A DNA stretch of 64,000 bases from Nitrospirota bacterium (GCA_963733375.1 CAVTDB010000026.1:128001-192000), one strand, 5' to 3'; shown: positions 36,523-54,812, counted from the stretch's first letter. Notes: generated by a model from the letters alone, not told the origin. Program-made: numbers and translations.

Positions 36523-36567
36523 CTGCTGCCGTCCTTTCAAAAAAGTTCCTACAATGAATCCATTATC

Positions 36568-36596
36568 AGTATAAATTCATGGACAGAAGGTGTCAA
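36568..36596 (-). promoter_or_regulatory. Sigma70 promoter of cysM
   Basis: TTGACA-17 nt-TATACT. Confidence 0.65.
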
Positions 36597-36702
36597 CTTC
36601 CGTTTAAACGCAAAAGAGGGGCTTTTAGCCCCTCCCTTTGCGGAATCGCAAGTGACGGTGTCCCGGAAATTCTGCGGAATTGTGAATTCTGTCGCCGTAA
36701 TT

Positions 36703-38390
36703 CTATTTCATGAAAATTAAGGTGATGCGTTTTTTTAAGTCAACTGCAGGGGGAACGGATGTCTTTATATTAATTTTATCCTTTGGTGGTGTTCCGAATT
36801 TAACTTCAAAAGGTATACCGCTCTTTGTTTTTACCAGTGGCTGCATCGATAGTGGAACCGAACTCTGGCTATAGAACGTTATATAACAAACATCCGCCCA
36901 GTCCCAACCAGTAGCATTAGGACCGGTATTACTACTGTCGCTGTATGCCAAATTGCCTCTGAAGGTATAATTACTCTCCAAGTCAGTACCTTCATTAAGC
37001 TTGACATTAACGGTATAATTACTCGGGCTGTTGCCGTGGTCGCTGTAATAATGAAGCCTTACGTAATAGGGGCTGTCAAGGCTAAGGGTGTCCGTGTCCA
37101 TGAGAGTCCAGTGTTCCGGGCCGTAACCAGTAGTGCAGTCATAATCAAGTTCGCCACCGTCGGCGGTAACTTTATGATAGTAGCATGAATAATCACCGGT
37201 AGGATCTATGACATACGTGTCGATATCCGTATCGTAAGTATCCACGTGGTGGTGACTAGTATGAGAGATTTAGGAAGGTTAAGATTAAGCACAAAACCGC
37301 TGTATTCGATATTGTTGTGAAGCGTTATTGGCCTAAACTTTTGCTCTGACAGGCTGTATACATCCCCGGTTGTTACAAATTGCAGATAATTATCACCGCT
37401 TACGAGATTAACGGCCACGGAAAAATCCCCGTTTGGGGCTACGTCCGTTTTATAACATGTATCTCCTACGAATACCTCCAAACTGTTTACTAAGATATCG
37501 CCGCTGTTTTCAATATTGCCGTCAATAAAATGTGCGGTGGAACTGCTGACAGAAACGGGTGAAGTGATATTTATTGTTACTGGTACACCGTCACTCATAA
37601 TATCTTCATAATTTTCGAAACGAATAGAACCGTCACCGCATATCTGATTAGATCATAACTACCACCAAACCCCAAAGTATGAATAGCATCAAAGTATTAT
37701 TTGCATAATTATATTTTATGCTTCTATTTTCGCCTGGTAAATTTGGGTCATATATCAATATTTCCCCTGAAGGGCCATTCACCCATAGGCAAGGACGGAA
37801 TGAGTATCACGTTGATTACTATCTTTGTGTCCAATAATATAAACACGGGATTTTGTGTGTCTTTAATATTTTTATATATTAAATTGAAAGTATCTTATCG
37901 TCTAACTTGTTGATTATCATCAAAAGGTTCTGAAGGTACGAAACCATCTGCTGAATTGAAGTTTCTGCCTTATAGAATTAAATCTTGCCAGTAAGCGCTG
38001 TTCATCACGTTAGCCACTATATTCATATAATTAGGGGTAAATGCCAAGGTTGCCTTTTTGCTCATAAAATACCATAATGAGAAAGAAGTCATTCCGAAAC
38101 ATTATTGGACGGGTAAGCGTTATTATTTTTTTGAATCCATCGTCCGCTGGATGATATTTGTAGGACATTTCATAACCGTAATTCGTAGGCGATTTCATTC
38201 CATGTGTAAGACGCTGAAATGTATCTGTAAATGTGTGGGCTACCGGTCATATTTATTAACTGGACAGGGCGTAGAATTGCCTTGATGTCACGTATATGGC
38301 GCGTACATTGTTCCCGTCATCGGCAAATGGTACCGTTACCTGTACAGGCTGATCAACTGATATACTACCGGAACATTAATATAAAGAAGT
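36703..38390 (-). pseudogene. AT-rich, fragmented gene with C-terminal YfaP/DUF2135-like domain
   Basis: Fragments 36703-37245 (DIDTYVIDPTG..LDYDCTTGYGPEH) and 37206-37598; upstream part has no long frame; GC far below neighbours. Confidence 0.5.
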
Positions 38391-38392
38391 TT

Positions 38393-39478
38393 GGGCGGCA
38401 CGCGCGGAAAAGCGCCAGACGCGACAGGAGACCAGGCGGACGGCGCGCCGGGGGAACCAGACGGCGACGGCGGCCGCGCGGCCACGCCGGAAAGCGGGAC
38501 GGGGGCACCGGACAAGCCGACGCGAAGCAACGAGCGCCCAAGAGGAGCGGGAAAGAGCAGCCGCGGAGGAGCAAGAGGGAGAGGAGGGACAAAGACAGCC
38601 GGGAGCAAGAAGAGAGAGCAGCGGAGCCGCCCCAGGGAAGGAAGCCGGGCGAAAAGGCAGCGGGCCCGCGGCGAACACACCACCCGGCCGCGGACAGAAA
38701 GACGGCCGAAGCGCGGCCGCACGCAAACGGAGAGACAAAACGGGGCCAAGCGCCGGCAGCCACAGAGCACCCACGGCCAGCGGCACAACGACGCGCAACA
38801 GAAGGACACGCCAGCGGCCCGCGACAAAGGAACGACCCCAGAACGGGGGGGGAAGGACGGAACGCCAGGGCAGGCGCGCCCGACAAACGACCCGGCACCA
38901 AGCCGCCCCCAGCGCAGAGGGCGACCGGCAGGCCGCGGACGAAAAAGGCGCGACCGCAGGCCGGCAAGCGAAAAAACAAAAGGAAAAAACACGCCCGGCA
39001 GAACGGGCGCGGACCAACACGCCCCAGGACAGCGAAACACACGAAGGCCGAAAGAAACCAGCCGGCCGCACCAGCGGAAACCAACACCGGGCCGACCGAC
39101 AACAGCAGCGCAGGCAAGGGCCGGGAAGGCGGGCGACGAGCACGCGCGAACCCGCACCGACGCACGCGAGGACGCCAGCGCCCACGGGGCCAGCGCCGGG
39201 CCGGGCCCAGGCCCACGGCCCCACGCCGACACCAGACAGGCCAGGGCACGGCAAGACCAGAACAACAACGAACAAGAGGAAAGCGGAGAAACAAAACAAC
39301 AAGACAAAGACCAACACAGAAAAGCAAAAAGCGGGCACAGGGCAGGGAGGAAGAAGAAAGGAGGAAAAAGAAGAAAGAAAGAAGGGGAGGAAAAAGAAAA
39401 AAGAAAAAAAAGAGAGGGGAAAAAAAGAAAAAAAAAAAAAAAAGAGAAAAAAAAAAGGGAAAAAAAGAAAAGAAAAAA
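38393..39478. other. 1086-nt stretch with no T on the + strand (probable sequencing/consensus artefact)
   Basis: Only A, C and G from 38393 to 39478, ending in a pure A/G run. Confidence 0.85.
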
Positions 39479-39482
39479 TTCA

Positions 39483-39511
39483 TGGACAACCCTGTCAACC
39501 GAAGTTATAAT
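39483..39511 (+). promoter_or_regulatory. Sigma70 promoter of dsrN (near-leaderless)
   Basis: TGGACA-17 nt-TATAAT, 8 nt before ATG 39520. Confidence 0.55.
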
Positions 39512-39519
39512 GGCACGTT

Positions 39520-40890
39520 ATGTATTTATCTATTCCAAGACTCACGATATCAGCCCCGCACCGGAGCTCCGGCAAAAGCACCGTCACTATCGGCCTGTGC
39601 GCCGCGCTTTCGGCAAGGGGCCTGAAAGTGCAGCCGTTCAAGAAAGGCCCGGATTTCATAGACCCCATGTGGCACGAGGCCGCGACGGGCAGGCCGTCAT
39701 ATAACCTTGATTTTTTTATGATGGGCCCTGAAAAGATAGAAAAAAGCTTCCAAAAACGTGCGAAAGGCGCCGATATATCCATAATAGAGGGCAACATGGG
39801 CCTCTATGACGGGATAGATATAGAGGGATCGGACTCCACGGCGGGCTTGGCAAGGCTCCTTAAATCGCCCGTCATCCTGGTGGTCGACTGCTCCGGCATG
39901 ACCAGGGGTATTGCCCCGCTGGTCAACGGGTTCTGCAAATTCGAGCCGGAGACTAACGTCGCCGGGATTATCCTTAATAAGGTAAAAGGTTCAAGGCATG
40001 AAAAGAAGCTCCGGGAGGCTGTAGAGCGTTTTTGCGGAGTGCCGGTGCTTGGTGCGCTGCCGCACCAGGAGGAAATGGGCATCAGAATGCGCCACCTCGG
40101 ACTTGTTCCCCTGAAGGAAGAGGAAGGGCTCCTGCCGGTGGTTACGGAGATGCAGAAGGTCATAACCGAAAATCTGGACCTTGATAGGGTAATCGACATA
40201 GCCTCTTCCGCCCAATCCCTTGAGGAACTTCCGCAGGAGGATATATTAATTCCGGAGCCGGTGGTCCGTATAGGGGTGGCGATGGATAGGGCGTTTACCT
40301 TCTATTATCCGGAGAATTTAGAAGGGCTGCGGGCGGCCGGTGCGGAATTGGTTCCCTTTTCACCGCTTGAGGACAAGGACCTGCCTGCGGTGGACGCGCT
40401 ATATATAGGAGGGGGGTTCCCTGAAGTTCATATGGAAGCCCTGGAAAAAAACGCCTCTATGCGGAAAGCGGTAAAGGATGCCGCAGAGGGGGGTATGCCT
40501 GTTTACGCCGAGTGCGGGGGGTTGATGTACCTTTGCGGCAGCCTTGTCTGGGAGGGGCTGATGTGCCGGATGGCGGAGGTTTTTCCCTGCGCCATAAGGA
40601 TGTCGAAGCGGCCCATGGGCCACGGCTACGTCCTGCTCCGTCCGACGGCGGAGGGCTCCTGGCCCGTCTTTGCCGAAGAGATAAGGGCGCACGAGTTCCA
40701 TCACTCCAGTATTGACAGGGCGGGTGAGGATATAAAATTCGCTTTTCAGGTCCTTAGGGGCAGGGGAGTGGACGGCAGCCATGACGGGATGGTCTATAAA
40801 AATGTCCTGGCGGCGTATACGCACATACATTCCCTTGGGACGCCGGGGTGGGCCCCGTCTTTCGTGCAGTTCGTAAAAAGCATATGTTAA
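39520..40890 (+). CDS. dsrN: Siroheme amidase / cobyrinate a,c-diamide synthase homolog
   Basis: SSGKST, FKKGPDFID, IEGNMGLYDG, GGGFPE, YAECGGLMYL, HEFH; located directly before dsrC. Confidence 0.85.
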   Translation: MYLSIPRLTISAPHRSSGKSTVTIGLCAALSARGLKVQPFKKGPDFIDPMWHEAATGRPSYNLDFFMMGPEKIEKSFQKRAKGADISIIEGNMGLYDGIDIEGSDSTAGLARLLKSPVILVVDCSGMTRGIAPLVNGFCKFEPETNVAGIILNKVKGSRHEKKLREAVERFCGVPVLGALPHQEEMGIRMRHLGLVPLKEEEGLLPVVTEMQKVITENLDLDRVIDIASSAQSLEELPQEDILIPEPVVRIGVAMDRAFTFYYPENLEGLRAAGAELVPFSPLEDKDLPAVDALYIGGGFPEVHMEALEKNASMRKAVKDAAEGGMPVYAECGGLMYLCGSLVWEGLMCRMAEVFPCAIRMSKRPMGHGYVLLRPTAEGSWPVFAEEIRAHEFHHSSIDRAGEDIKFAFQVLRGRGVDGSHDGMVYKNVLAAYTHIHSLGTPGWAPSFVQFVKSIC

Positions 40891-41191
40891 AACCTATTAA
40901 TTAAAATTATAATGACTTTAAAATTATCTATATAGTCACTTTTCAAAAAAGCTTGACAAACGCGCTTTGACGGACTTATAGTATCACTGAAAATAAACAG
41001 CGTTTTAAAATTAACCCTTAAGTAGTATAACCTTCGGCAATAAAACGCAAAGTTTATAATTTCCCGTCTGTCCATTCAGGCTCAATTAAGGTCTGAAAAC
41101 AAGATAGAATGACCAAGTATTTTAAAGAATCACAGGTGTCGATGGGGCGTCTGTGGGTGACAGGGTAACTCTCTAACAGGAGGTAAGTAAG

Positions 41192-41527
41192 ATGCCGAAT
41201 ATCGAATTTAAGGGCAGATCCTATGAAGTGGACGAGGACGGGTATCTCATTAACCTGGACGACTGGAACGAAGATGTCGCGGGTTATTTAGCGGAGCAGG
41301 AAGAAGTCGAGATGACCCCCGCCCACTGGGAAGTGGTCAACTTCCTCAGGGATTACTACGCCGAATACAAAATAGCCCCGATGATCAAGATCTTGGTCAA
41401 GGCCCTGGGCGCGAAACTCGGACCGGAGAAGGGCAACACGAAGTACCTTTACGAGCTCTATCCGGCCGGACCCGCGAAGCAGGCTTGCAAGATCGCAGGG
41501 CTTCCCAAACCGACCGGCTGCGTATAA
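41192..41527 (+). CDS. dsrC: Sulfur carrier DsrC (both C-terminal Cys)
   Basis: GPAKQACKIAGLPKPTGCV (Cys-X10-Cys). Confidence 0.97.
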   Translation: MPNIEFKGRSYEVDEDGYLINLDDWNEDVAGYLAEQEEVEMTPAHWEVVNFLRDYYAEYKIAPMIKILVKALGAKLGPEKGNTKYLYELYPAGPAKQACKIAGLPKPTGCV

Positions 41528-41549
41528 GGCAATCGGAAACGTTCCCCTG

Positions 41550-41579
41550 TCCCGTCCCGCCTGAAAAGGCGGGACGGGA
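41550..41579 (+). other. 13-bp GC stem-loop with GAAA loop between dsrC and dsrM
   Basis: TCCCGTCCCGCCT-GAAA-AGGCGGGACGGGA, no U-tract. Confidence 0.7.
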
Positions 41580-41612
41580 TAAGCGTCAACCGGTCTGGAA
41601 GGAAGGATATCG

Positions 41613-42344
41613 ATGGAATTCTCTCTTATTACGGTAATCTTTTCCCTGATGGCCTATGGAGCGGCGGCCATTTTTATCTTCGGCCTTCTCTCGAAGATAA
41701 TAAATTACGCCAGAACCCCATCCCCGCTTATAATCCCTACGACCCCGGCCCCCACGACTTCTTTCGGCGCGATGGTCCGGGTCCTGAGTGAGGTATTTCT
41801 GTTCAGGAGCCTTTACAAGGGCAACAAATGGACATGGGTAGGCGGCGTGGTCTTCCACTGGGCCTTCCTGTTCGTGATACTCCGGCACCTCCGTTATTTC
41901 TTCTTTCCCGTGCCAGCCTGGGTTATGGGACTCCAGAATATAGGCATCTATGCCGGGATAATCCTTCCCATAGGCGTGCTGTACCTGCTGATGAGGCGCA
42001 CCACGGTAGACAGGACAGTTTTCATTTCATCCCTGGCGGATTATTTCGCGCTTGCCCTTATTTTCTTTATCGCCGGGACCGGCCTCATTATGAAATACTA
42101 TGAGCGGCCGTTCATGGTGGACATAAAAGGCTTCGTGTACGGCCTTATGACCTTTAATCTCTCTACCATGCCGCTGGACCCGCTCTTCCTCGTACACTTC
42201 ACCCTGGTGCTGATGCTGCTTGCGTACTTCCCGTACAGCAAGCTGGTGCACGCGGCAGGAATATTCTTCAGCCCGACGAGGAACCAGGCGGACAACCCGA
42301 GGGAGAAAAGGCATGTAACCCCCTGGTCGCCGAACCTTACTTAA
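41613..42344 (+). CDS. dsrM: DsrM (NarI-like diheme b membrane subunit), short type
   Basis: PLIIPTTPAP, FHW..VILRHLRYF, H..LV..L..YFPYSKLVH, FFSPTRNQ.DNPRE.RH. Confidence 0.93.
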   Translation: MEFSLITVIFSLMAYGAAAIFIFGLLSKIINYARTPSPLIIPTTPAPTTSFGAMVRVLSEVFLFRSLYKGNKWTWVGGVVFHWAFLFVILRHLRYFFFPVPAWVMGLQNIGIYAGIILPIGVLYLLMRRTTVDRTVFISSLADYFALALIFFIAGTGLIMKYYERPFMVDIKGFVYGLMTFNLSTMPLDPLFLVHFTLVLMLLAYFPYSKLVHAAGIFFSPTRNQADNPREKRHVTPWSPNLT

Positions 42345-42356
42345 GGAGATTTCAAA

Positions 42357-43860
42357 TTGGCTAAAGTAAAGTTTGAGGCCCCGGAATTAACCGGTGAGTT
42401 AACGATACCCGGCCTGAAAGAAGACGCCGCCGCATCCGCCCAAAGCCAACATGCGCCGGTAAAGGATATGATCGACCTGGGCTTCCCCACGGAGCTTGTT
42501 CCGGATTGGCAGGAGAAGGCGATCGCCAAGTTCGACGAGCTTCTCAAGAAGTACCGCTCACTGAAGGTCTTCCTGGATATCTGCGTCAAATGCGGCGCAT
42601 GCACTGACAAGTGTCAGTTCTACCTTGGCACTAAAGACCCGAAGAACATGCCGGTGGCGAGGGCGGAGCTCCTCCGCAAGGTTTACCGCCGCTACTTTAC
42701 GACTGCGGGAAAAGTGCTGGGCAAACTGTCCGAGGCAGATGACCTGACCAAGGAAGTGCTGGACGAGTGGTATACCTACTTCCACCAGTGTTCTGAGTGC
42801 AGGCGCTGTTCGGTATTTTGTCCTTACGGCATCGATACAGCGGAGGTAACCATGGCCGCGAGGGAGATCATGGACACCGTAGGCTACGGTGCAAAATATC
42901 CCCTCCAGACCATCAACAAGGCCATCACCGTAGGCAACAACCTCGGCATGCCCGGCCCTGCTATCCAGAGCACGCTGGACTTTATGGCTGAAGAAGTACT
43001 GGAACAGACCGGCGTTCCGGTGAAATTTCCGATGGACGTAAAGGGCGCGGACGTATTGCTTGTAACTCCCTCGGCGGATTTCTTCGCCAGTCCGCACGTA
43101 GAGTCGCTTGCCGGATATGCAAAGGTATTTCATCAGGCGGGTATAAGCTGGACGCTCTCGTCGTATGCGTCCGAGGCCGGCAACTTCGGCATGTTCAACG
43201 GCAACTATGAGCATATGCGCAAGATAGCCGCCAGAATCAAGGTGGCCATAAATGAATTAAAGCCAAAGAGGCTTATACACGGCGAATGCGGTCATGCATG
43301 GCGCGTAGCCTACAGCTTCTGGAACACGCTCATCGGGCCGTTTGATACGCTCGACCCGAAATACCCCGCCCCGCAGCACATCTGCGATTTCACGAACGAC
43401 CTGATTAAGAGGGGAGCCTTGAAGCTGGACAAGACGGCAAACGACCAGTTCGTCGTCACCTTCCACGACTCCTGCAACGTCGCCAGGGCCACCCGGATAG
43501 GCAGCTATGCCGGCAGCCAGTTCGAGATACCCAGGGAAATAATAAGGGCGACCTGCAACAAGTTCGTGGACATGCGCGCCGGACACCATACGCGAGAGGA
43601 CATTCTGCTGCGGCGCCGGCGGCGGGCTCCTCGCGGACGAGATTATGGATCTTCGTCTAAAAGGGGCGATGCCGAGGATGCAGGCGTACAAGGAAATCAA
43701 GGACAAGGACGGCGCGAATTTCTTTGCCCTCATCTGCGCCATATGCAAGGCGCAGTTCACCAAGGTCTTCCCGTACTACGGATACGATATGGAAGAGGTC
43801 GGCGGTATACACCAGCTCGTGGGCCGCGCGATAGTGTTGGGCGGGAAGGAGGGGATATAA
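42357..43860 (+). CDS. dsrK: DsrK (HdrD-like Fe-S subunit); frameshift near 43595
   Basis: CVKCGACTDKC, CSECRRCSVFCPYG, GECGH, TFHDSCN, FCCGAGGG, CAICK. Confidence 0.95.
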
Positions 43861-44166
43861 ATGAAAAAATCGATCTTGGCCGTGCTGTTCATATCCCTCC
43901 TGGCAATGGTAGCCGTCGGCTGTTCGAACAAGCGGGTGACGAAGCCCGAGCTTAAGGGTACGGGGCCGCTGGCACTTAAACTTCCCGCGGGAATACTCTC
44001 CCCGGAATACCACCAGCCGGTCGATTTCTGGAAACAGCATCACATGGACATCCTTAAAAGGGGCGACTACAGCAAGCACGAGTGCATGCTCTGTCACGAC
44101 GCGGACACCTCGTGCAACAACTGCCATGAATATGTGGGCGTCGCAAAGGTCGAAGGATACGAATAA
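43861..44166 (+). CDS. Diheme c-type lipoprotein, DsrJ-like (truncated)
   Basis: AVGC lipobox; HHMDIL; CMLCH..CNNCHEYVGV; directly follows dsrK. Confidence 0.7.
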   Translation: MKKSILAVLFISLLAMVAVGCSNKRVTKPELKGTGPLALKLPAGILSPEYHQPVDFWKQHHMDILKRGDYSKHECMLCHDADTSCNNCHEYVGVAKVEGYE

Positions 44167-44183
44167 TAGGGGAGCCCAATACG

Positions 44184-44669
44184 ATGGAAGAGAAGAAAGA
44201 TACGGCTCAAGCGGGCGCCGCACCGGCGCCTGAGGAACATCACGGCGGAAAATTCATGGCCGGAAGGCGCGCCTTTCTGGGCGTTTTCGCCGGATGCATA
44301 GGCGCTCTGGGCGCCGGGCTCGTCGGTGTCCCGCTCCTGGCGTCGTTTACGCCGGTCCAGAGGGGCAAGCCGGAGCCCGCGGTAATGAACCTGGGGGACA
44401 TACCTCTGGGTGGTTACGCGCAGGGTGTTTATGCCGGATACTCGTTCCTGGTATTTAACAGGAAGACCGGAATCGAGTGCATATCCTTGAAATGCTCTCA
44501 TCTGGGCTGCACCGTCAAATGGGTCGAGGCGGAGAAGAAGTTCAAATGCCCGTGCCATGACGGCACGTTCGACGAGCACGGGATAAATAAGAGCGGCCCT
44601 CCACCAGTGCCGCTCGATAAGCTGGATTATAAAATCGCCGGCGACAAACTAATAGTCGGAGGTGCATAG
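44184..44669 (+). CDS. Rieske [2Fe-2S] protein with Tat signal anchor
   Basis: GRRAFLG; CSHLGC; CPCHDG; GPPPVPL. Confidence 0.93.
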   Translation: MEEKKDTAQAGAAPAPEEHHGGKFMAGRRAFLGVFAGCIGALGAGLVGVPLLASFTPVQRGKPEPAVMNLGDIPLGGYAQGVYAGYSFLVFNRKTGIECISLKCSHLGCTVKWVEAEKKFKCPCHDGTFDEHGINKSGPPPVPLDKLDYKIAGDKLIVGGA

Positions 44670-44670
44670 G

Positions 44671-45327
44671 ATGAGCAAGGTGATTGATTGGGTTGATTCC
44701 CGAACGGGGGTCTCCGAACTGCTGGACGACGAGGTATTTTCCAAAAAGGCTCCGAGGCTCGCGAAGTGGTACGAGTTCTTCGGCTGTTTTGGGGGGATGT
44801 CGCTTATACTCTTCATAATCCAGGTGCTATCAGGTACCTTCCTCCTGATCTACTATACGCCTTCTCCAGCGGATGCTTTCTCCAGCGTCGTCTTCATCGA
44901 CAACGGCGTCTACTTCGGCTGGCTCTTCAGGCGTCTGCACGCGGTCGGCGCGAATGTGATGATCCTCCTGGTGATGATACACATGCTCAAGGTTATAATC
45001 ACCGGGGCGTACAAGGCTCCCAGGGAGTTTCACTGGATATCCGGCTTCGTCCTTCTGATGCTCACGCTGATGATGGGCATCTCCGGTTATCTCCTGCCCT
45101 GGACCCAGCTCTCGTACTGGGCGGTCACCGTGCTCACGACCTCGTTCTCGGTCGTCCCCGTTCTCGGGCCCACAATGATGAAGGTTATACGCGGAGCTGA
45201 TACCGTCTCTGGACCGACCTTGGGCAGGTTCTACGCCCTGCACCTGGCGCTCCCGGTGGTCATGTCGCTCTTCTTGGCTTTCCATTTCATGATGATAAGA
45301 AGGTCTGGTATCCAGGAGCAGTTATAA
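44671..45327 (+). CDS. Cytochrome b6-like N-terminal subunit
   Basis: FGCFGG, QVLSG, RRLHAVGAN....IHM, SGYLLPW..SYWA, RFYALH...FH. Confidence 0.93.
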   Translation: MSKVIDWVDSRTGVSELLDDEVFSKKAPRLAKWYEFFGCFGGMSLILFIIQVLSGTFLLIYYTPSPADAFSSVVFIDNGVYFGWLFRRLHAVGANVMILLVMIHMLKVIITGAYKAPREFHWISGFVLLMLTLMMGISGYLLPWTQLSYWAVTVLTTSFSVVPVLGPTMMKVIRGADTVSGPTLGRFYALHLALPVVMSLFLAFHFMMIRRSGIQEQL

Positions 45328-45342
45328 GGAGAGGATGGGAGA

Positions 45343-45775
45343 ATGAAATACAACAAAGACAACTGGAAGGGCGAGCTCGAACCTTTCTGGCCGCACGATG
45401 TCATCGACAAGGGGTTAATAGCCTGCATCGTAATAGGCATCTTCTTCGCGATAGCCTTCTTCATGCCGGACCTCTTCCTTCCGCCCCATGAAATGCCGGC
45501 GGACTCGACGAACACGCCTCTGGCCGTGAAACCTGAATGGTACTTCCTGGCGGCTTACCAGACGCTGAAGCTATTCCCGACGAAAATTTTTCGGGGGCGC
45601 TGCCGAGCTGATGGGGATGGGCGTGCAGGTAATAGCCATCACGGGTCTCTTCCTCCTGCCGTTTCTAGACAGGGGCAGCGAGAAGAGGTGGAAGATGCGG
45701 CCCACGTTCCAAAAGGGAGTCATAGCCGGGGTAATAGTATTCGTAGGCCTGACCATTTGGGGCCACTTATCTTAA
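45343..45775 (+). CDS. Cytochrome b/b6 C-terminal subunit (subunit IV); frameshift near 45590
   Basis: PFWPH, PAD..NTP..VKPEWYFL; LPFLDR in the shifted frame; TAA at 45773-45775. Confidence 0.88.
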
Positions 45776-45797
45776 TTTTGCACGGAAGGAGCAACCA

Positions 45798-46334
45798 GTG
45801 ACAGGGAGAGTAAGAGGACTTCTTTTCGTAGCGGCTCTCGCCGTACTTCTCACTCCCGCTTTCGCGGCGGCGAAGGACAACTACTGCGGAGAGTGCCATA
45901 CCGCAAGAGAGATTGCGTCCTTCGGGAGTCTGACGAGGTGGGACAGGAGCATATACCAGCAGAAGGACACGCTCTGCCCGGGGCTCTTTGAGATTAAGAA
46001 AGAGCAGTACTTCACGGAGAGCAGGCTCCTGAAGTACGACAACTTCCTCACCGTGATGGAAGAGCAGACGCGGAGATACCCGGAATATTTAAAAGAGGAC
46101 CTGGTTAAATACGGAGTGCAGTACGCGGATCTGAAAAGCCAGAATGTAGATTCGATAGATGCATTCGCGGTACCGAACTTGAAGATCAAAAAGAACCTGG
46201 GGGGGGTGTACGAGACCTTCAACAAGCTCCGTGAAGACTACAAAATGGAAAAAGTGATCGGACTGGGGCTGCTGGCGGTAGTCATTATCTCCCTGCTCTT
46301 CTTCATGGGGCTCAAGAAAACCGTAAAGGAATAA
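45798..46334 (+). CDS. Membrane-anchored monoheme cytochrome c
   Basis: Signal peptide; CGECH near N-terminus; C-terminal TM helix. Confidence 0.7.
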   Translation: MTGRVRGLLFVAALAVLLTPAFAAAKDNYCGECHTAREIASFGSLTRWDRSIYQQKDTLCPGLFEIKKEQYFTESRLLKYDNFLTVMEEQTRRYPEYLKEDLVKYGVQYADLKSQNVDSIDAFAVPNLKIKKNLGGVYETFNKLREDYKMEKVIGLGLLAVVIISLLFFMGLKKTVKE

Positions 46335-46347
46335 CGAGGTCTAAAGG

Positions 46348-48136
46348 ATGCTCAAAAGAATATTCGCAATAACATGTGCTGTTGCACTTCTGGCAGTCCT
46401 TGCCTCCTGCAATGAGAAGGAAGGCAAATCAGTAGACCCCAAGGTGGTAGCGGCCGCCGTCGAAAAGGCGGGTAAGACCGCCGACGCTCTGGACAACACG
46501 AACCTGAAGGCTTATGAGCTTGGAAGGCTTGGAGCCGCGATGGCGGAGCAAGGCGTACCCGGCGCGTCCGAGACCCTTGACGAAGCCCTGAAGCTGGCAA
46601 CGGGCGTGCGGGCGCCGTCGAACCTGGCGCTGGCGACAGAGCTTCGCGACCAGTCGAAGGACTGGGGGCCGAAGGACCGTGAAGCCATCGATCCCGCACT
46701 GGAAAGAATTACCAACGACTCCACCCGCGTCTGGGTAATCCGCTCCATAGCGGAAGGCATTGCAAAGTCAGACCGGGCGAAGGCCGTTGGAATTCTGGCA
46801 CAGGCCGCAAAAGATGCGCAAACCATCCCTAACCCGAGATATCGCGACCTGGACCTCCGGGGAATATCAGCGGCGCTCGCCGAGCTTGATTTTTCGGCCG
46901 GGATGGGCGTGGCCGCGAATATCTCCGACCCGAGGGTCAGGTCCTGGGCTTTAATGGAAGCGGGGAAGGCGGCAAAGGCCAATGGCTCAAAGGACGCAGC
47001 CCAGGCGTTTACGGCCGCTGGCGACGCGGCGGAGGCGGTTTTGAAGATGGAGCCTTCGAGTGAGCTGATAACCGATGCGACTCCTGCGGACGTGAAGGCG
47101 AAAGTCCTCGCTGCGGATAAGGGGAGGCTCGAGGCATATGCGGCCAGGGCAATGGCCAACGCCGCCCTTGCGATGAAAGATTACGACCCGGCAAAAGTCG
47201 TCGGCGATGTTCGCCAAGGCGGAGGAAATCGCCGATTCGATAGAGCAGCCGTACACCAAGTCATACGCGATGAGCGACGTCGCTATAGCGCTTGCCGGAT
47301 CGAACGCGACCGAAGCGGACGCCTATGCCTCCAAGATTGCGGCGGGCCATGAAGACGCGAAGTTCGCGGCGATGATGAAGTCCGGGGCCTCGGAAACCGA
47401 CAAATGCCGCGCCGGCTGCGATTCCGGCGAGATGGCCAAGGCTGTCAGTGTCGCGGAATCCATATCCGATCCCTACGACAGGGCGAAGGCGCTGGAGCTT
47501 ACGGCAACCGCCCTGGCGGCCTGTGACCCGAAGCAGGCCGAGGAAATTGCGGGGAAGATGGAGTATGTCGCGCTTAAAAATTCGGTATTGGCATCCCTTG
47601 CGGTCGCGGCCTCAAAAGGGGGAGATGAGCAGTTTAAAAAGGCCCTCGATAAGATAGATGAGCCGAGGTTCGCCAAGGATGAGGCGGTTTACGCCAAAGC
47701 CTGCGCGCTGGTCGGCGCCGCCGAAATAAAGGCGAAGACGGAACCAGCCGCCGCCGTAAAGATCTACGGGAAGGCCGCCACGGCAGCGGCCGATGCAAAA
47801 AGCCAGGCGCTCCAGTGGAAGATAGCGGTGGAACTTTGCAGGCTGGACCCGGACAAGCTTGTGAATTATGCCGCAAAGCTCGAAGGGGACGACGCTACCA
47901 AGGCAGCCGCTCTCACCGAGGTCGCGGCGGATTGGTCGGCTAAGGGCGATTACCGTTCTCCCATGGTCTGGGACATGGCGGTGAAGTCCGCGATGGCAGT
48001 GGATGACAAGACCGCTTCGGCGGAGCTTCTGAGCAAGATCGCTTCGTCCTGCGCGAAATATGATAAGGCCAGGGCCGCAGCCATATTCAGCAAAGCCCTT
48101 GAGAAGGCCGGGAAAATAGGCGTAGTCCAGAGTTGA
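46348..48136 (+). CDS. Ala-rich alpha-solenoid lipoprotein; frameshift near 47200
   Basis: LASC lipobox; repeated A..A..I.DP..R..AL helical pairs across ORFs 46348-47352 and 47207-48136. Confidence 0.65.
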
Positions 48137-48164
48137 CGGCAAGAACCTTAAGAGGAGGAACTCA

Positions 48165-48521
48165 ATGAAAATAGGCGTAATGATACAGGAAGGCCCGTAC
48201 AACCACGAGGCCTCCGACACCGCCTACAATTTTATCGAAGCGGCAATGGCGAAAGGCCATTCCATCCAGGGTGTTTTCTTGTATGACGACGCAGTAACGA
48301 ACGTCGCCAAAAGCATGGAGCCGCCCATGGATGACAGGCATATAGCCAGGAGATGGTCGGAATTGGGAGCGAAAGGCGTGGATATAATAGTCTGCGTAGC
48401 GGCGGCCAAGAGGCGCGGCATAAGCCCAAGCCTTATCGTGGACAATACCAGGATTTCCGGCCTGGGCCAGCTTAGCGAGATATGCACCGAAGCTGAGCGC
48501 GTCGTCACCTTCGGCGACTGA
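48165..48521 (+). CDS. dsrE: Sulfurtransferase DsrE
   Basis: EGPYNHEASDTAYNF, VFLYDDAV, VCVAAAKRRG, ISGLGQL. Confidence 0.93.
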   Translation: MKIGVMIQEGPYNHEASDTAYNFIEAAMAKGHSIQGVFLYDDAVTNVAKSMEPPMDDRHIARRWSELGAKGVDIIVCVAAAKRRGISPSLIVDNTRISGLGQLSEICTEAERVVTFGD

Positions 48522-48538
48522 GGAAAGGAGACTCAAAA

Positions 48539-48895
48539 GTGGCAAAGATAATGTTCGTAAACAGAAATGCACCCCACGGGACGATATATGCCTGGGAGGG
48601 TCTCGAGGTCATCCTTATCTTCGGCGCGTATGAAAACGAACTCGCTGCGGTATATATGGACGACGGCGTATTCTGCCTGAAGAAGGGCCAGGATACCTCC
48701 GGAATAGGCATAAAAGGGTTTATCAAGACCCTTCCGGTGCTCGAAGATTACGGCTGCGAAAAGATATACGTCGATAAGGAATCGATGGAGAAAAGGGGCC
48801 TGACGCCGGACGATTTCGCGATACCGGTTGAGGTGATGGATTCGGCGGGGATCGGGAAGGTTATGGCGGAGCAGGACGTTATCCTGCCGTTTTAG
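48539..48895 (+). CDS. dsrF: Sulfurtransferase complex subunit DsrF
   Basis: APHGTIYAWEGLE, DDGVF.LKKGQ, IYVDKESMEKRGL. Confidence 0.93.
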   Translation: MAKIMFVNRNAPHGTIYAWEGLEVILIFGAYENELAAVYMDDGVFCLKKGQDTSGIGIKGFIKTLPVLEDYGCEKIYVDKESMEKRGLTPDDFAIPVEVMDSAGIGKVMAEQDVILPF

Positions 48896-48911
48896 ATAAG
48901 GAGGAGCAACC

Positions 48912-49205
48912 GTGCTTCATATAGTAAATAAATCTCCGTACATGAAGGGTAGTCTGGAGAGCTGCATAAGGGTCGCGCAGAAGGACGACCCGATCCTGCT
49001 GATTGAAGACGCCGTACTCGGCGTCGCCGCCGGCGGAGGCATTGAGAGCCTGATTCAGGGCGCGATGAAAGATCATCAGATCTATGCCCTGGGCGCGGAC
49101 CTCCTGGCGAGAGGCATAGACGGCCTGACTCCTGGCGTGAAGGTGGTGGACTACGGCGGGTTTGTCGAGCTTGTCGAACAGCACAGGACGATGACCTGGC
49201 TTTAA
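48912..49205 (+). CDS. dsrH: Sulfurtransferase complex subunit DsrH
   Basis: MLHIVNKSP, ILLIEDAV, DLLARG, VDYGGFVELV. Confidence 0.93.
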   Translation: MLHIVNKSPYMKGSLESCIRVAQKDDPILLIEDAVLGVAAGGGIESLIQGAMKDHQIYALGADLLARGIDGLTPGVKVVDYGGFVELVEQHRTMTWL

Positions 49206-49879
49206 TGAGTATGGACAGGAACATCCTGTCGGACCTTCTGCTTGCGCGAAAATATCGGGAAGCGATGGACCTGATAAAAAAAAGACATAGCCGTTTAAGG
49301 ATCCTCCTGGGCCTTTTGTATTCCGAGGAAGAGCTGGTCAGGTGGAGGGCCGTGACATTGCTGGGGCTGATTGCCGCCGACGGCGAAACCGACCTGGCCC
49401 CGGCGGTGAAGAAGCTGCTGTGGTTTCTTAACGAAGAATCCAGCACGGTCGGCTGGTGTTCCGCGCAGGCTATCGCCGAGATATACAGAAATAATCCGGG
49501 CATGGCCAGGGACGCGATACGGGTCGTGCTCCACCTGTCGGACGATCCGGAGATATCTCTGCCCGCCAACAGGAACACTCCTATACTCGCGGGGTCCATC
49601 TGGGCCATCGGGATACTGGCGGAAGACGAGCCGGCGCTTGTCTCGGAGATGGGTCCGGCGCTGACGGAATTTTTAAAAGACCCCGACCCCTCGATAAGGG
49701 GCTTTTCCGCATGGGCCCTGGGCAGAATGGGTTTCCAGGAGGCGGAAGAAGGACTCAGGGCGCTTGCCCATGATGACTCATTCGTTAATCTTTACGAGGA
49801 TGATTCACTTAAAAATATTACTGTAGCGCGCGCCGCAGGAGACGCGCTTGAGAATATTCAGAAAAAAAACGGAGAATGA
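49205..49879 (+). CDS. HEAT-repeat protein (DVU0298-like)
   Basis: [24 protein letters not shown]; translationally coupled to dsrH. Confidence 0.7.
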
Positions 49880-49953
49880 AGGAGGTGAGGAAAGCCAGGC
49901 CGGCTTTAGATTTTAGAGGTCTATTTTATACACCAGAAAAGGAGAAAGTACTG

Positions 49954-51138
49954 ATGTCTGATACCCCATTGATTGACCAGCTTGAAACCGGCCCATGGCC
50001 GAGCTTCATCAGCGACATTAAAAGGATGGCCAAAACGAATGCCATGTGCAAGGACCTTCTGGGGCTCCTCGAAATGTCCTACAAGGACAAGAGGACGCAC
50101 TGGAAACACGGCGGCATAGTCGGTGTCCGCGGCTACGGCGGCGGCATCATAGGCCGCTATTCCGATTCTCCGGAGATGTTCCCGAACGTATCCCACTTCC
50201 ACACCGTCCGCGTCAACCAGCCGGCCGGGTGGTTCTACAACACGTCTTCTCTCCGTTACCTCTGCGACCTCTGGGAGAAGCACGGCTCGGGCCTCACGAA
50301 CATGCACGGCTCGACCGGCGACATGGTCATGCTCGGCACCACCACCGAACACCTTGAGGACATCTTCACCGACCTCTCGGAGCATGGCTGGGATCTGGGC
50401 GGCTCCGGCTCGGACGTCCGCACCCCGTCCTGCTGCAACGGCATGGCCCGCTGCGAGTACGCCTGCATCGATACCATGAACATATGCCACGACATAACGA
50501 ACGAGTACCAGGACGAGCTTCACAGGCCGGCCTTCCCGTACAAGTTCAAGTTCAAATTCTCGGGTTGCCCGAACGACTGCGTCGCATCCATCGCGCGTTC
50601 CGACTGCTCCGTCATCGGCACCTGGAGGGACGCCATCCAGCAGGACGACGCCGCCGTGGCCGAGTACGCCAAGGGCGGAAAAATCGACATAGCGAACGAC
50701 GTCGTCGGGAAATGCCCCACGGGCTGCATGTCCTGGGACGGCTCGAAGCTCTCGATAGACAACTCCAACTGCAACCGCTGCATGCACTGCATAAACCTCA
50801 TGCCGAAGGCGCTCCGCCCCGGCAAGGACAAGGGCGCGATGGTACTGCTTGGCGCGAAGGCCCCGATCGTCCAGGGCGCGCTGCTCGCATCCGTTGTAGT
50901 GCCGTTTATAAAGATGGAAGCCCCTTACACCGAGTTCAAGGAGCTTATCGCGAAGATATGGGAAGTATGGGACGAGCACGGCGAGAGCAGGGAGCGCATA
51001 GGCGAGATGATCGTGCGCATAGGCAAGGGCAACTTCATCGAAGAGGTAGGCCTGGAGCCGGTCCCGTCCATGATAAAGGAGCCGAGGTCCAACCCCTACA
51101 TCTTCTACGAAGAGTTCTTTGAAGAAGAAGAGGCGTAG
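49954..51138 (+). CDS. dsrA: Dissimilatory sulfite reductase alpha subunit
   Basis: [33 protein letters not shown]5-C...SGCPNDC, CNRCMHC; AGGAG RBS before ATG 49954. Confidence 0.98.
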
Positions 51139-51220
51139 GCGGGAGGTTCATCCGGGTTGTTGTGGTAGTTTAATATAAATAAACTGATGAATAAATAAAT
51201 CAGACGGAGGGATTAAGAAA

Positions 51221-52297
51221 ATGGCAGCTCCGAAGAGAAAGACAGACATAGGGCCACCCCATTACGAACAGATGCTCCACCCGACGGTGAAGGCCAATTA
51301 CGGAAAATGGAAGTACCATGAGAATATCAAGCCGGGCGTCCTCATGCACGTCTCCGAGACCGGCGACAAGATCTACACCGTCAGGGGCGCGTCCTCGAGG
51401 CTTATCAGCATCGAGAAGATAAGGGATTACTGCAACCTGGCCGACAAGTACTGCGACGGCTACTTAAGGTTCACAAGCCGCAACAACGTCGAGTTCCTGA
51501 CCGAAAAGGAAGCCAACGTCCAGCCGCTGATCGACGAGATGAACAAGCAGGGCATCCCCGTCGGCGGCACCGGCAACAGCATATCCAACATCGTCCATAC
51601 CCAGGGCTGGGTACATTGCCACAGCTCCGCGACGGACGCCTCCGGCGTGGTCAAGGCCACGATGGACGAGCTGATGGACTACTTCACGTCCATGACCCTG
51701 CCCGCGCATTTAAGGATAGCGGTCGCCTGCTGCCTGAACATGTGCGGCGCCGTCCACTGCTCGGACATCTCGATCCTCGGCATACACAGGACCCCGCCGA
51801 CCATCGACCACTCCAAGCTCGGCAACATGTGCGAGATACCGTCAACCGTCGCCTCCTGCCCGAAGGCCGCCATACGCCCGAAGATGGTCGATGGCAAGCA
51901 GTCGGTCGAGGTCATCGAAGACCTCTGCATGTACTGCGGCAACTGCTACACGGTCTGCCCGGCGATGCCGATAGCCAACCCGCTTAACGACGGCATCTCG
52001 ATATGGGTCGGCGGCAAGGTCTCGAACTCCAGGCACGAGCCGATGTTCTCGAAGCTCGCGATACCGTACCTCCCGAACAACCCGCCGCGCTGGCCGGAAG
52101 TCACCTCAGCGGTAAAGAACATCGTCGAGACCTACGCCGGTGACGCGAAGAAGTACGAGAGGGTCGGCGAGTGGATAAACAGGATAGGCTGGCAGAAGTT
52201 CTTCGAGAAGACCGGCCTCGAGTTCACGAAGTACCACATTGACGACTTTACCCTGGCGTCCAGCACGTACAATTCCTCTACACATGTCAAATTTTAG
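51221..52297 (+). CDS. dsrB: Dissimilatory sulfite reductase beta subunit
   Basis: [49 protein letters not shown]. Confidence 0.98.
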
Positions 52298-52309
52298 GGG
52301 GGTATGATC

Positions 52310-52555
52310 ATGGCGTCCATAGAAGAGATCAAAGACTACATATTCCACAAAGTGGAGTCTTACGCTGGCAAGAAGCAGGTGAAGGTGCCGATTCTCAGCC
52401 AGGAAGTGATCGAACATTTCGGCGAGGCCGAATGCTCGAAGAAGGACGTGAAGCAAGCCCTGAAGGAGCTTATAGACGACGAGAAACTCGTATATGGCTA
52501 CTTCGGCGGCACTACACTCGAAATACCGCACACAGAAGGAAGCGCGAACGCGTAA
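52310..52555 (+). CDS. dsrD: DsrD-like winged-helix protein
   Basis: 81 aa immediately after dsrB; KDVKQALKELIDDEKLVYGYFGG. Confidence 0.75.
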   Translation: MASIEEIKDYIFHKVESYAGKKQVKVPILSQEVIEHFGEAECSKKDVKQALKELIDDEKLVYGYFGGTTLEIPHTEGSANA

Positions 52556-52568
52556 ACGGAGATGAACA

Positions 52569-54246
52569 ATGGCGTTAGTTAAGAAGAAAAAGAAGGATTA
52601 CGGCGCAAAATCCGGCTCCGACTCAGACCTCTACCCTGAGGCCTAAGTACCAGCCGAAAACGCCGCCGTGCACGTTCAAATGCCCGTCGGGAGTTGACGT
52701 CAGGGGCTATGTGATGCACATCAGCCAGTCCGAGATGTACGGCAGGACGGTTGAGCAGTCGATTAACGAGGCATGGTACATGCTGACGGACAAGAACCCG
52801 CTCCCGGCGACGACGGGAAGGGTATGTCCGCACCCCTGCGAGAGCGAATGCAACAGGGGGGGCATAGAGGGCCCGCTCAACATCAACAACATTGAGCGGT
52901 TCATGGGAGATTTCGGAATAAAGAACGCCCTCCCGCTCAAGAAGATGACCGATGAAAAAAAGGCCGAGAACGTTGCGGTAGTCGGCTCCGGACCGGCAGG
53001 CCTTTCCTGCGCCTATCAGTTAGCCAGGCGCGGCTACGGTGTGACTATCTATGAATCCTTCGAAAAGGCAGGCGGAATGCTGCGCTACGGCATACCGGCC
53101 TACAGGCTGCCGGAGGATGTGCTGGATGCCGAGATCAAGAAAATCCTTGACCTGGGCGTACAGCTTAAGCTGAATACGAAGGTAGGCAAGGACGTCCCAT
53201 TCGATGAACTCCGGAAATCCAACAGCGTCGTATTCATGGGCATAGGCGCCCACGCTGGAAAGAAGCTCGGAGTCCCCGGAGAAGACGCGGCGAACGTGAT
53301 GACCGGCGCGGAGTTCCTCCACAAGGTCAATAGCGGCGAAAAGGTCGAGATAGGGGACAAGGTCATAGTAATCGGCGGCGGCAACAGCGCCATCGATGCA
53401 GCCAGGGTCGCAGTCAGGCTCGGCGCTGACGTTACTCTATCCTACCGCAGGACCCGCGCGGAGATGCCCGCCATCGAGCACGAGATCCATTCCGCGGAAG
53501 AGGAAGGGGTCAAGTTCGAGTACCTTACCGCCCCCGTCGAGGTGGTTGTAAAGGACGGCAAGGCTGCGGGCCTGAAGCTCCAGAGGATGGAGCTTGGCGA
53601 GCCGGACGCATCCGGCAGGCGCAGGCCTGTCCCGGTCGCGGGTTCCGAGTTCGTGGTGGACGCGACATTTGTCTGTCCGTCCATCAGCCAGGAGCCTGAG
53701 TTCGACGGCCTGGATACGCTGAAGAACGAGAAGGGCTGGATATCGGCGGACGCTGGCGGGAAGACCGCGGCCGAAGGCGTATTCGCGGCCGGCGACGTGA
53801 CCAACCAGCTCGGTCTGGTGACTGAGGCCATAGGCCTTGGCAGGAAAGCGGCGGAAGCCATCGACGACTTCATCCAGAAGAAGGAGAAGCCGGAAGTGGC
53901 CCCGCTGGCGGTAATCCGCTATCAGAACATGTACCGCGACTTCTTCCCGAAGAAGGAGAGGACTTCCACGAAGTTCCTCTCGGCGGCCGAGGTAAAGGGG
54001 AGCATGACGAAAGAGCCCATGCTGCCTCTCTCGGACGAAGAGTTCAAGGAAGAAGTATCCCGCTGCATGAGCTGCGGGCTCTGCTTCGACTGCGACAACT
54101 GCTGGATGTACTGCTCGGACGGCGCCGTGCAAAAGACGTCGAAGGACCTGCCGCGAGGCACGCATTACGAGTTCATCCTGGAGAAGTGCCAGGGTTGCAA
54201 GAAATGCGCTGAAGCCTGTCCCTGCGGCTACATAGACATGTTATAA
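52569..54246 (+). CDS. dsrL: NAD(P)H:acceptor oxidoreductase DsrL (YRR, DsrL-2 type); frameshift near 52620
   Basis: LRPKYQPKTPPC...CPSG, GRVCPHPCE..CNR, GSGPAG, GGGNSAID, SYRRT, RCMSCGLCFDCDNC, CQGCKKCAEACPCGYI. Confidence 0.9.
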
Positions 54247-54330
54247 AAATGTTCTGTTTCGTCTCCCGGGGGGCCGCCCGTCCAAGGGGGCCCTCCGGGT
54301 TGTTTTTTAAGGGCATATCAGGAGATCTGA

Positions 54331-54801
54331 ATGGAAGATATTACGCTGAGAGAGATCATCGACTACGCCAGGATAAACGAGGAAAACTCCAAGCGCTTCT
54401 ATTCCGAAGCCGCGGAAAAGTCCACAGTGGAGAACGTCCGGGCTTTCCTGACGCACCTGGCGAAGGAAGAGCAGAAGCACATCGACCATTTAAACGATCT
54501 GGATAAGACGGTCGATAAGGGCGGAGCGATACCGAAGCCGCATGAGGTGGCGAAGCCGCTGGGATATGCCGAGTTCGTCGGCAATGTAAGGCTGGACGAC
54601 ACGGCGAGCTATCAGGACGTGCTCAAGGCGGCTATGGCTAAGGAGAAAGAGGCGCTGGAGTCTTACAAGAAGTACGCCGCTCTGTCTGACGACCCGAAGG
54701 CGAAGGAGCTGTTCCTTTTCCTGGCGGCCGAAGAGAGCGTGCACTTGAGGGGCTTCGAGGAGAAGTATGATGATTTCATGAGAGAGATCGAAAACAACTA
54801 A
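54331..54801 (+). CDS. Rubrerythrin/ferritin-like diiron protein
   Basis: E..S..FY, LAKEEQKH, AMAKE, LAAEESVH. Confidence 0.8.
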   Translation: MEDITLREIIDYARINEENSKRFYSEAAEKSTVENVRAFLTHLAKEEQKHIDHLNDLDKTVDKGGAIPKPHEVAKPLGYAEFVGNVRLDDTASYQDVLKAAMAKEKEALESYKKYAALSDDPKAKELFLFLAAEESVHLRGFEEKYDDFMREIENN

Positions 54802-54812
54802 GGGTGGGCTGA

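Follow-up and report, generated by a model that had tools for sequence, protein, structure and literature searches.

How does a Dsr membrane complex that lacks DsrO and DsrP exchange electrons with the quinone pool? This question is raised by a dsr gene cluster on a 64,000-nucleotide stretch of DNA (hereafter the window; GCA_963733375.1, CAVTDB010000026.1:128001-192000) from a soil Nitrospirota bacterium, in which dsrM, dsrK and the gene for a predicted truncated DsrJ homologue (dsrJ') run directly into genes for a Rieske protein, a cytochrome b6, a subunit IV, a one-haem cytochrome c and a lipoprotein. In the DsrMKJOP complex of A. fulgidus, cryo-electron microscopy places quinol oxidation at DsrP, from where electrons pass through DsrO, DsrJ, DsrM and DsrK (bioRxiv 10.64898/2026.08.25.746951), so that a DsrMKJ complex without DsrO and DsrP needs another partner on the outer side. 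We find that the arrangement in the window, already in print in passing for one other phylum, is real and conserved, and that it represents a form of the Dsr membrane machinery which is still uncharacterised. The source genome is a metagenome-assembled genome (MAG) of 2.39 Mb in 26 contigs, 81% complete and 5% contaminated, and its near relatives are Nitrospirota MAGs.

Gene order and conservation of the eight-gene module

The cluster spans 39.5-54.2 kb of the window, all on the + strand, in the order dsrN, dsrC, dsrM, dsrK, dsrJ', Rieske, cytochrome b6, subunit IV, 178-aa cytochrome c, lipoprotein, dsrEFH, HEAT protein, dsrAB, 83-aa protein and dsrL. Intergenic gaps from dsrM through dsrE are 0-28 nt; those of dsrJ' and the five further genes that follow dsrK are 0-22 nt, and dsrJ' starts at the base right after the dsrK stop codon. 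An initial annotation of this DNA had listed dsrM, dsrK, a dsrJ-like gene, the Rieske, split cytochrome b, cytochrome c and lipoprotein genes, dsrEFH and dsrAB, all of which are present where it had placed them. The eight genes from dsrM to the lipoprotein gene (dsrM, dsrK, dsrJ', Rieske, cytochrome b6, subunit IV, cytochrome c, lipoprotein) are treated here as one module.

Neither dsrO nor dsrP lies in the cluster, as the same annotation had pointed out, and across this 81% complete MAG no gene scores as DsrP over the cut-off (best 32.5 bits vs. 350) and no DsrJ was found. The NrfD-family genes of the genome, all on contig C25, score 35-38 bits against the DsrP model (NF045798, cut-off 350). 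The class of the source genome is represented by 12 species genomes in the genome set used, all from one family and six of them ≥90% complete; none of the 12 has a DsrP over the cut-off (best 69 bits vs. 350), compared with 188/401 in the phylum sample, and canonical DsrJ is likewise over its cut-off in none. The DsrO model is just exceeded in seven of the 12 class genomes and is exceeded in E. coli as well. In the source genome its matches (200-213 bits) have PsrC-like and molybdopterin genes as neighbours, and TtrB is the better-scoring model for them; they are Psr-like NrfC proteins, and the DsrO model is non-specific. DsrO and DsrP are missing from this class, not merely displaced. Two loci on contig C25, neither of them DsrOP by score, hold proteins of these families: a Psr/Ttr-like cluster (95949-103207) of NrfC-like, NrfD-like and molybdopterin subunits, flanked by 10-haem and 15-haem cytochromes, and a pair of a twin-arginine NrfC-like and an NrfD-like protein, both frameshifted (112862-114922).

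The gene order of the module is the same in 7/7 related Nitrospirota MAG loci. A dsr-linked cytochrome b6 (81-100% identity) occurs in nine of the 12 class genomes; of those remaining, two have dsrK at a contig end facing the module and one has no dsrK, so the module is kept in 9/9 class genomes with assembled DNA after dsrK. The next cytochrome b genes in the phylum sample belong to other Nitrospirota families, are 46-48% identical and lie among multihaem cytochromes with no dsr genes beside them. Relatives returned by a protein search with cytochrome b6 grade without a break from 94% to about 50% identity, and two of them (52-53%) carry the source label 'candidate division KSB1'. Eighty metagenome loci fetched with an alignment of cytochrome b6 relatives were screened by tblastn with all cluster proteins. 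At 18 of these (cytochrome b6 50-100% identical) dsrK or dsrJ' lies directly upstream; at 35 neither does, despite DNA being present (cytochrome b6 ≤49%); the remaining 27, of mixed identity, have too little upstream DNA to judge. Every informative locus with a cytochrome b6 at least 50% identical is therefore linked (18/18), and 12 of these 18 represent divergent lineages (e.g., L059, L064, L067). The linkage of dsrK to Rieske and cytochrome b genes, whose conservation the initial annotation had left to be checked, thus extends well beyond the source genome.

Among the divergent loci, a high-GC lineage (GC content 0.63-0.65) encodes DsrK at about 52%, DsrA at 57-62% and cytochrome b6 at 50-54% identity to the window. 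Its representative L067 has the order dsrN, dsrA, dsrB, DsrD-like, dsrC, dsrM (239 aa), dsrK, dsrJ' (107 aa, with a lipobox and two CxxCH motifs), Rieske, cytochrome b6, subunit IV, an anchored one-haem cytochrome and a 575-aa lipoprotein. After the module (12473-18186), this locus encodes a QmoC/HdrC-like membrane Fe-S protein, TauE, a second DsrK/HdrD-like CCG protein and an NrfC-like ferredoxin, and tblastn found no dsrEFH or dsrL match within 9 kb. The same eight genes under other flanking genes indicate that the module moves as a block between dsr contexts. A quick maximum-likelihood tree was built from 108 cytochrome b sequences; one of its clades (Shimodaira-Hasegawa-like approximate likelihood ratio test support 98) unites 14/14 rows of the Nitrospirota lineage with 8/10 rows of the divergent lineage, and the nine 'unlinked' rows of this clade all come from contigs on which the DNA upstream of cytochrome b is too short to judge. 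The linked rows L054 and L055 are placed in an adjacent group of weak resolution, and unlinked sequences otherwise fall in other clades. Collectively, these data show that the module is conserved and of shared descent in several lineages.

The initial annotation knew of no description of such an arrangement, a statement that does not stand. The dsr operon of Candidatus Tariuqbacter has been reported to carry petBCD/cytochrome b6f genes in place of dsrJOP, and two other Electryoneota MAGs to have 'cytochrome b6f instead of dsrJOP' (PMC10439189). The gene set in the window fits this type, with dsrMK adjoining Rieske and cytochrome b6 genes and dsrO and dsrP found in neither. The Electryoneota carrier is reported to have two dsrK copies, and a second DsrK-like CCG protein is encoded downstream of the module in the high-GC lineage. 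The operons are compared by description only, and in its available passages that paper describes no DsrJ remnant, cytochrome c, lipoprotein or distribution; the host here is moreover a Nitrospirota bacterium, and the module stands beside dsrEFH and dsrL. Our literature search found no description of dsr-linked Rieske or cytochrome b genes in Nitrospirota. The available text passages of four comparative dsr papers (PMC10591310, PMC13293266, PMC10504309, PMC11406059) contain no Rieske, cytochrome b or bc1, and those of the DsrMKJOP cryo-electron microscopy preprint make no mention of Rieske and bc1 (bioRxiv 10.64898/2026.08.25.746951). The present analysis adds a host in Nitrospirota whose cluster includes dsrEFH and dsrL, identifies a DsrJ kept in two-haem form, defines all eight genes of the module and shows their common descent in several lineages.

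Predicted properties of the module proteins

The short-form DsrM (41613..42344) matches Pfam Nitrate_red_gam and reaches 187 bits on the NCBIfam DsrM model (NF038037), under the cut-off of 300. Compared with the canonical dsrC-T-M-K-J-O-P clusters of four other Nitrospirota genomes (L041-L044), whose DsrM has about 330 aa, the 243-aa protein is missing four segments, including one of 10 residues in the region of transmembrane helix 3 (TMH3), and keeps the RHLRY motif. A Pro is present in TMH3, and an AlphaFold2 model shows this helix unbroken, but at a predicted local distance difference test score (pLDDT) of 64. No DsrM structure was matched in a search of the PDB, where the best match was NarI (E 0.007). 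DsrK (42357..43860) is 500 aa long in clean relatives; the window copy scores 461 bits on the NCBIfam DsrK model (NF045796, cut-off 400) and so passes despite a frameshift, and its relatives score 550-582 bits.

DsrJ' (43861..44166) is a 101-aa lipoprotein with a lipobox and two CxxCH motifs. Its sequence exceeds the cut-off of no Pfam or NCBIfam model, the DsrJ model itself (NF038038) giving 10.6 bits against a cut-off of 100 (E about 1). Profile comparison with the canonical DsrJ of the same four genomes (hhalign, eight vs. four sequences) nevertheless gave a probability of 95% and an E value of 4e-8 over 71 columns, with a shared N-terminal KPE..G.GP, an H-M motif and the first two haem motifs. 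DsrJ' has no third CxxCH, no counterpart to a 21-residue segment and no Cys at the position of the His/Cys ligand (Tyr-His instead), and its lipobox sits where DsrJ has a membrane helix. As judged from these comparisons, the protein is a truncated DsrJ homologue: the homology implied by the label 'DsrJ-like' in the initial annotation holds, whereas a full three-haem DsrJ is not encoded. Cys21, His51, His61 and both CxxCH motifs are invariant across the Nitrospirota and high-GC lineages, and the four His available for two haems would fit two bis-His haems. DsrO supplies a His ligand to one DsrJ haem in the canonical complex (bioRxiv 10.64898/2026.08.25.746951); a DsrJ' that has its own ligand and has lost one haem would fit the loss of DsrO.

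Similarly to the b6f complex and the b6c complexes of Firmicutes and heliobacteria, the module encodes a twin-arginine Rieske protein and a cytochrome b split into cytochrome b6 and subunit IV. The Rieske 2Fe-2S protein (44184..44669; Pfam Rieske 38 bits; UCR_Fe-S_N under its cut-off at E 0.0014) has the boxes CSHLGC and CPCHDGTF. Cytochrome b6, the N-terminal half of cytochrome b (44671..45327), scores 181 bits on Pfam Cytochrome_B and 215 and 213 bits on the NCBIfam models for cytochrome b6 and ExtP, both under their cut-offs. It contains the four haem-ligand His (His90, His104, His191 and His205) and a single Cys, Cys39 in GCFGG, which is invariant in alignment A5 and stands at what we take to be the haem ci site of b6-type complexes; the Cys for a covalently bound haem ci is predicted to be present. 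The helix-D His pair has 13 residues between its members; the corresponding spacing in b6f is 14. Subunit IV (45343..45775; 143 aa in relatives; Pfam Cytochrom_B_C, TIGR01156) carries the PEWY motif. These details of His, Cys, PEWY and Rieske box, together with the twin-arginine signal, had been read correctly in the initial annotation.

Ser and Tyr near the Rieske cluster raise its potential. Both residues of the box CPCHGSVY, found in a second Rieske protein of the same genome, are missing from the dsr-linked Rieske proteins of both lineages (CPCHDGTF in the window, CPCHAASF in L067), in agreement with what had been noted for the window protein. That second Rieske protein belongs to a set on contig C1 (about 94279-96295; L010 5279-7295), beside the sdh/suc genes for succinate dehydrogenase and succinyl-CoA synthetase, which further comprises a fused 401-aa cytochrome b and a frameshifted one-haem cytochrome c; because this conventional Rieske/cytochrome b set is present, the dsr-linked copy is an extra one. 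The source genome has three cytochrome b genes in all, as do eight of the nine genomes with the module. The third, on contig C2 (L009 5473-6729), stands without a neighbouring subunit IV gene, and the N-terminal 220 aa of its product match no known family.

Unlike in the b6f and b6c complexes, the genes here are tied to dsrMKJ' and the c-type subunit is of no known family: the 178-aa one-haem cytochrome c (45798..46334; signal peptide, one CxxCH, C-terminal membrane helix) matches no Pfam or NCBIfam family over the cut-off and nothing in the Atlas, and is not of the cytochrome f or c1 type. It is kept in both lineages with the CxxCH and Cys60 invariant (alignment A8), and its structural model has a pLDDT <50 over residues 18-62, the haem region. 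No invariant Met or second His is available as sixth haem ligand. As pure conjecture, the protein might carry a His/Cys haem through Cys60, the kind of Cys that DsrJ' has lost. The alanine-rich helical-repeat lipoprotein (46348..48136; lipobox; 590-597 aa in relatives) yields tetratricopeptide-repeat-like leads only, with scores ≤0.90, and its counterpart in L067 is 25% identical.

Remaining cluster genes, frame breaks and transcription signals

Upstream of the module lie dsrN of the sirohaem amidase type (39520..40890; Pfam GATase_3 and CbiA) and dsrC (41192..41527; Pfam DsrC 159 bits, TIGR03342 166 bits), the product of which has both C-terminal Cys of the two-Cys arm. Downstream are dsrE, dsrF and dsrH (48165..49205; Pfam DsrE and DsrH; TIGR03012, TIGR03010 and TIGR03011 all over cut-offs), a DVU0298-family HEAT-repeat protein gene between dsrH and dsrA (49205..49879; NF045662 146 bits, cut-off 75), and dsrA and dsrB (49876..52297; TIGR02064 585 bits, TIGR02066 523 bits). 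An 83-aa winged-helix protein is encoded in the position of DsrD (52304..52555; Pfam DsrD 15.4 bits, E 0.024, under the cut-off of 24.2), followed by a dsrL-like NAD(P)H oxidoreductase gene (52569..54246; NF009410 554 bits; 558-560 aa in relatives), the start of which is inferred from L011. The source genome also has AprA.

One extra base each interrupts dsrK (near 43578), subunit IV (45582-45589), the lipoprotein gene (near 47198) and dsrL (near 52618) in the window. These positions were placed by comparison with the relatives L011, L012, L046 and L047 (L012 and L046 for dsrK; L011, L046 and L047 for subunit IV). The frames are intact in short-read relatives, giving the 500-aa DsrK, 143-aa subunit IV and 590-597-aa lipoprotein mentioned above, and the lipoprotein frame is unbroken in L011, L013, L014, L016 and L017. 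AprA on contig C17 is split likewise, cytochrome bd is also broken by an indel, and locus L011 is affected too. Given the relatives' intact frames, the split AprA and a contig from an RNA library that is without the extra base at 45589, we read the breaks as assembly errors rather than as pseudogenes. Automated gene calls on such assemblies will yield false pseudogenes and split genes.

Promoter-like sites with 11 of 12 matches precede dsrN (39483-39511) and dsrC (40953-40982); overall, the 10 promoter-like sites found compare with 8.1 expected from shuffled sequence and are not above chance. No promoter-like site with ≥10 matches was found on the + strand between dsrC and dsrL, which is no evidence of one transcript. 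In soil metatranscriptome data, contigs 90-99% alike to a relative (18/22 at 95-99%) cover 23/30 bins of positions 40900-54400, including dsrC, dsrM, dsrK, dsrJ', the junction of cytochrome b6 and subunit IV, and dsrF-H. This evidence comprises two rows with identical figures, probably one data set, and DNA carry-over is possible; in RNA runs X3 and X4 the matches were short, partial and from other organisms. The cluster of a relative is present in an RNA library, and the contigs do not establish a single transcript.

A stretch of about 2.88 kb between a cysK-like gene and dsrN (36598-39475) is missing in the relatives L011 and L012; at the junction their alignments share an overlap of about 25 bp. 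This DNA occurs once in the genome, is poor in GC at the left end, has a purine-rich + strand (AT skew 0.46) and ends in an A-rich tract (39391-39478) just before the promoter-like site of dsrN. It matches no Pfam or Rfam family, the Rfam search on 36400-41700 being empty at E values up to 0.01, and may be an insertion or an assembly artefact. On the other side of the cluster, the region after dsrL (54331-57132) encodes a rubrerythrin-like protein, a DHODB-type Fe-S/NAD-binding protein and a GltD-like flavoprotein, which may form an NAD(P)H-linked electron input beside DsrL. Further downstream on the - strand (61251-63564) are genes for the large subunit of a NiFe hydrogenase and a cytochrome b561-type membrane subunit.

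Proposed coupling of quinol oxidation to DsrC

Taken together, the gene content suggests that DsrMKJ' has, in place of DsrOP, a Rieske/cytochrome b6-c unit of its own as partner on the quinol side, the eight genes forming one functional unit, a reading that we consider evenly balanced between right and wrong. With DsrMKJOP the cluster shares DsrC, DsrM, DsrK and a DsrJ homologue encoded directly after dsrK, and probably its role at DsrC. In such a unit, DsrK would handle the sulfur carrier DsrC in the cytoplasm, DsrM would pass electrons across the membrane on two b haems, and the lipid-anchored two-haem DsrJ' would sit on the outer face of DsrM, where DsrO and the quinol site of DsrP would be replaced by a private Rieske/cytochrome b6 complex that oxidises menaquinol and brings an anchored c haem of its own. 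Electrons would then run from menaquinol at the quinol-oxidising (Qo) site through the Rieske cluster, the haem of the 178-aa cytochrome, the DsrJ' haems, the DsrM haems and DsrK to DsrC, and through the same carriers in reverse order when sulfur is oxidised. That the two halves touch, in which order the carriers follow one another, which way electrons flow and how much energy is gained are what we infer for this scheme. In favour of the proposal, the arrangement has been reported in a bacterium for which no aerobic pathways were found (PMC10439189). A co-fold of DsrM with DsrJ' scored 0.44, against 0.02 for the best control, with a partner pLDDT ≥66 and agreement between runs in ≥68% of contacts. 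In calibration the mark was reached by 116/157 solved complexes and 2/215 mismatches, but at scores ≤0.60 the passes number only 18 among the 157 solved complexes and include both passing mismatches; the co-fold thus lends weak support to a DsrM-DsrJ' contact, for which the prior from homology is favourable.

Several observations weigh against this proposal. The co-fold covered DsrM and DsrJ' only and was a weak pass, and none of the results demonstrates that DsrMKJ' touches the Rieske/cytochrome b6 proteins. Conserved gene order can arise from co-regulation. One genome that is 97% complete (G006) has the linked cytochrome b as its only one, and the source genome encodes two haem-copper oxidases and a bd oxidase, so that an ordinary respiratory role is possible. 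The energetics are also demanding. A Q cycle moves one charge per electron, and with one more from the transmembrane step of DsrM, two charges per electron would be moved between menaquinol and the sulfur couple; a full Q cycle into DsrM would need a gap of roughly ≥300 mV from menaquinol to the sulfur couple on DsrC, more than seems likely, and this route is doubtful. For a low-potential sulfur donor, reverse electron flow is unnecessary. The initial annotation had proposed a Q-cycle complex in place of the DsrOP quinone module, with extra proton translocation or reverse electron flow; this is borne out in part, for the loss of DsrOP and the conserved linkage. Finally, the short DsrM is without the TMH3 loop insertion, and if its own quinol site is open no partner is needed. 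The NarI-type quinol site looks accessible in DsrM of MK-only complexes; in that of MKJOP complexes it is closed off by a TMH3 loop insertion together with two arginines, and a Pro-type block is described for proteobacterial sulfur oxidisers (bioRxiv 10.64898/2026.08.25.746951).

These observations lead to the strongest alternative, in which two separate complexes are only co-transcribed: the short DsrM would have a working NarI-type site and trade electrons there with the menaquinone pool, and the Rieske/cytochrome b6 proteins would be an ordinary complex III, made alongside it during sulfur oxidation, that passes the electrons of this pool to c-type cytochromes and then oxidases or periplasmic reductases. 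We regard this as unlikely, though to be taken seriously. The oxidases of the genome, the single cytochrome b of G006 and the loss of a loop insertion tied to the blocked quinol site (bioRxiv 10.64898/2026.08.25.746951) would all suit it, as would dsrEFH and dsrL, which point to an oxidative or mixed pathway in the Nitrospirota lineage; Nitrospirota with dsrD, dsrEFH and dsrL have been discussed (PMC11406059). Cable bacteria offer a possible parallel, with DsrMKJ genes without adjacent OP genes and a Rieske/cytochrome b unit that has been proposed to drain a quinone pool filled by sulfur oxidation (PMC13047784). Their DsrJ and DsrM are however of the canonical reductive type, the Rieske/cytochrome b genes lie outside the dsr operon and OP homologues are found at another locus (PMC13047784), and their DsrMKJ, according to the authors, may need another electron partner (PMC13047784; bioRxiv 10.64898/2026.08.25.746951). 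The minimal DsrMK of Gram-positive and archaeal sulfite reducers likewise has a short DsrM and no DsrOP, whereas here a DsrJ remnant and five more membrane or periplasmic genes always follow dsrK. Two separate complexes would leave the retained two-haem DsrJ' without a partner, and co-regulation by itself rarely holds eight genes in order at about 50% identity between different flanks. Moreover, eight of nine genomes already own two other cytochrome b genes, and the sole published carrier is reported to be without aerobic pathways (PMC10439189).

Beyond a dedicated quinol-side partner, all components could belong to a single supercomplex in which bifurcation at the Qo site links the oxidation of quinol with the chemistry of DsrC, either as a Q-cycle-boosted DsrC-trisulfide reductase or as a bifurcating device that sends one electron to a high-potential acceptor and one to the sulfur pathway; we judge this bolder form of the proposal rather improbable. 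Quite improbable is a coupling through b haems, with part of the low-potential electron from the Qo site going sideways from cytochrome b6 to DsrM and DsrK and the high-potential electron leaving through the Rieske protein and haem c, so that quinol-based bifurcation would drive low-potential sulfur reduction; it escapes the energy problem of the c-haem route, yet nothing in the window suggests a contact between cytochrome b6 and DsrM, and the kept DsrJ' and extra haem c would go unexplained. Least credible of all is that the 101-aa protein, whose gene directly precedes that of the Rieske protein and which the DsrJ model hits at only 10.6 bits (E about 1) over the haem-motif region, is a two-haem cytochrome c subunit of the Rieske/cytochrome b complex unrelated to DsrM and resembling DsrJ by convergence at haem motifs, since its profile match spans 71 columns including KPE..G.GP and H-M outside those motifs, its gene begins at the base after the dsrK stop and its co-fold with DsrM (0.44 vs. 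0.02 for controls) passes, if weakly.

How DsrMK(JOP) conserves energy is an open question, and what is gained from DsrJOP is asked in the recent structural work (bioRxiv 10.64898/2026.08.25.746951). Under our proposal of a dedicated quinol-side partner, DsrOP would here be swapped for a different and well-understood quinol oxidase, with the cut-down DsrJ as its likely adapter, and the swap would be visible in no fewer than two deep lineages, of which one has dsr genes that look reductive and the other has genes that look mixed or oxidative. Were the supercomplex to prove true, it would naturally explain why DsrJOP is carried by most organisms, and evolution would have in it an alternative to quinol modules of the NrfD type. 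The module is a defined set of eight genes, and MAGs recorded as 'DsrMK only' may hide it, which would change how dsr gene sets are read.

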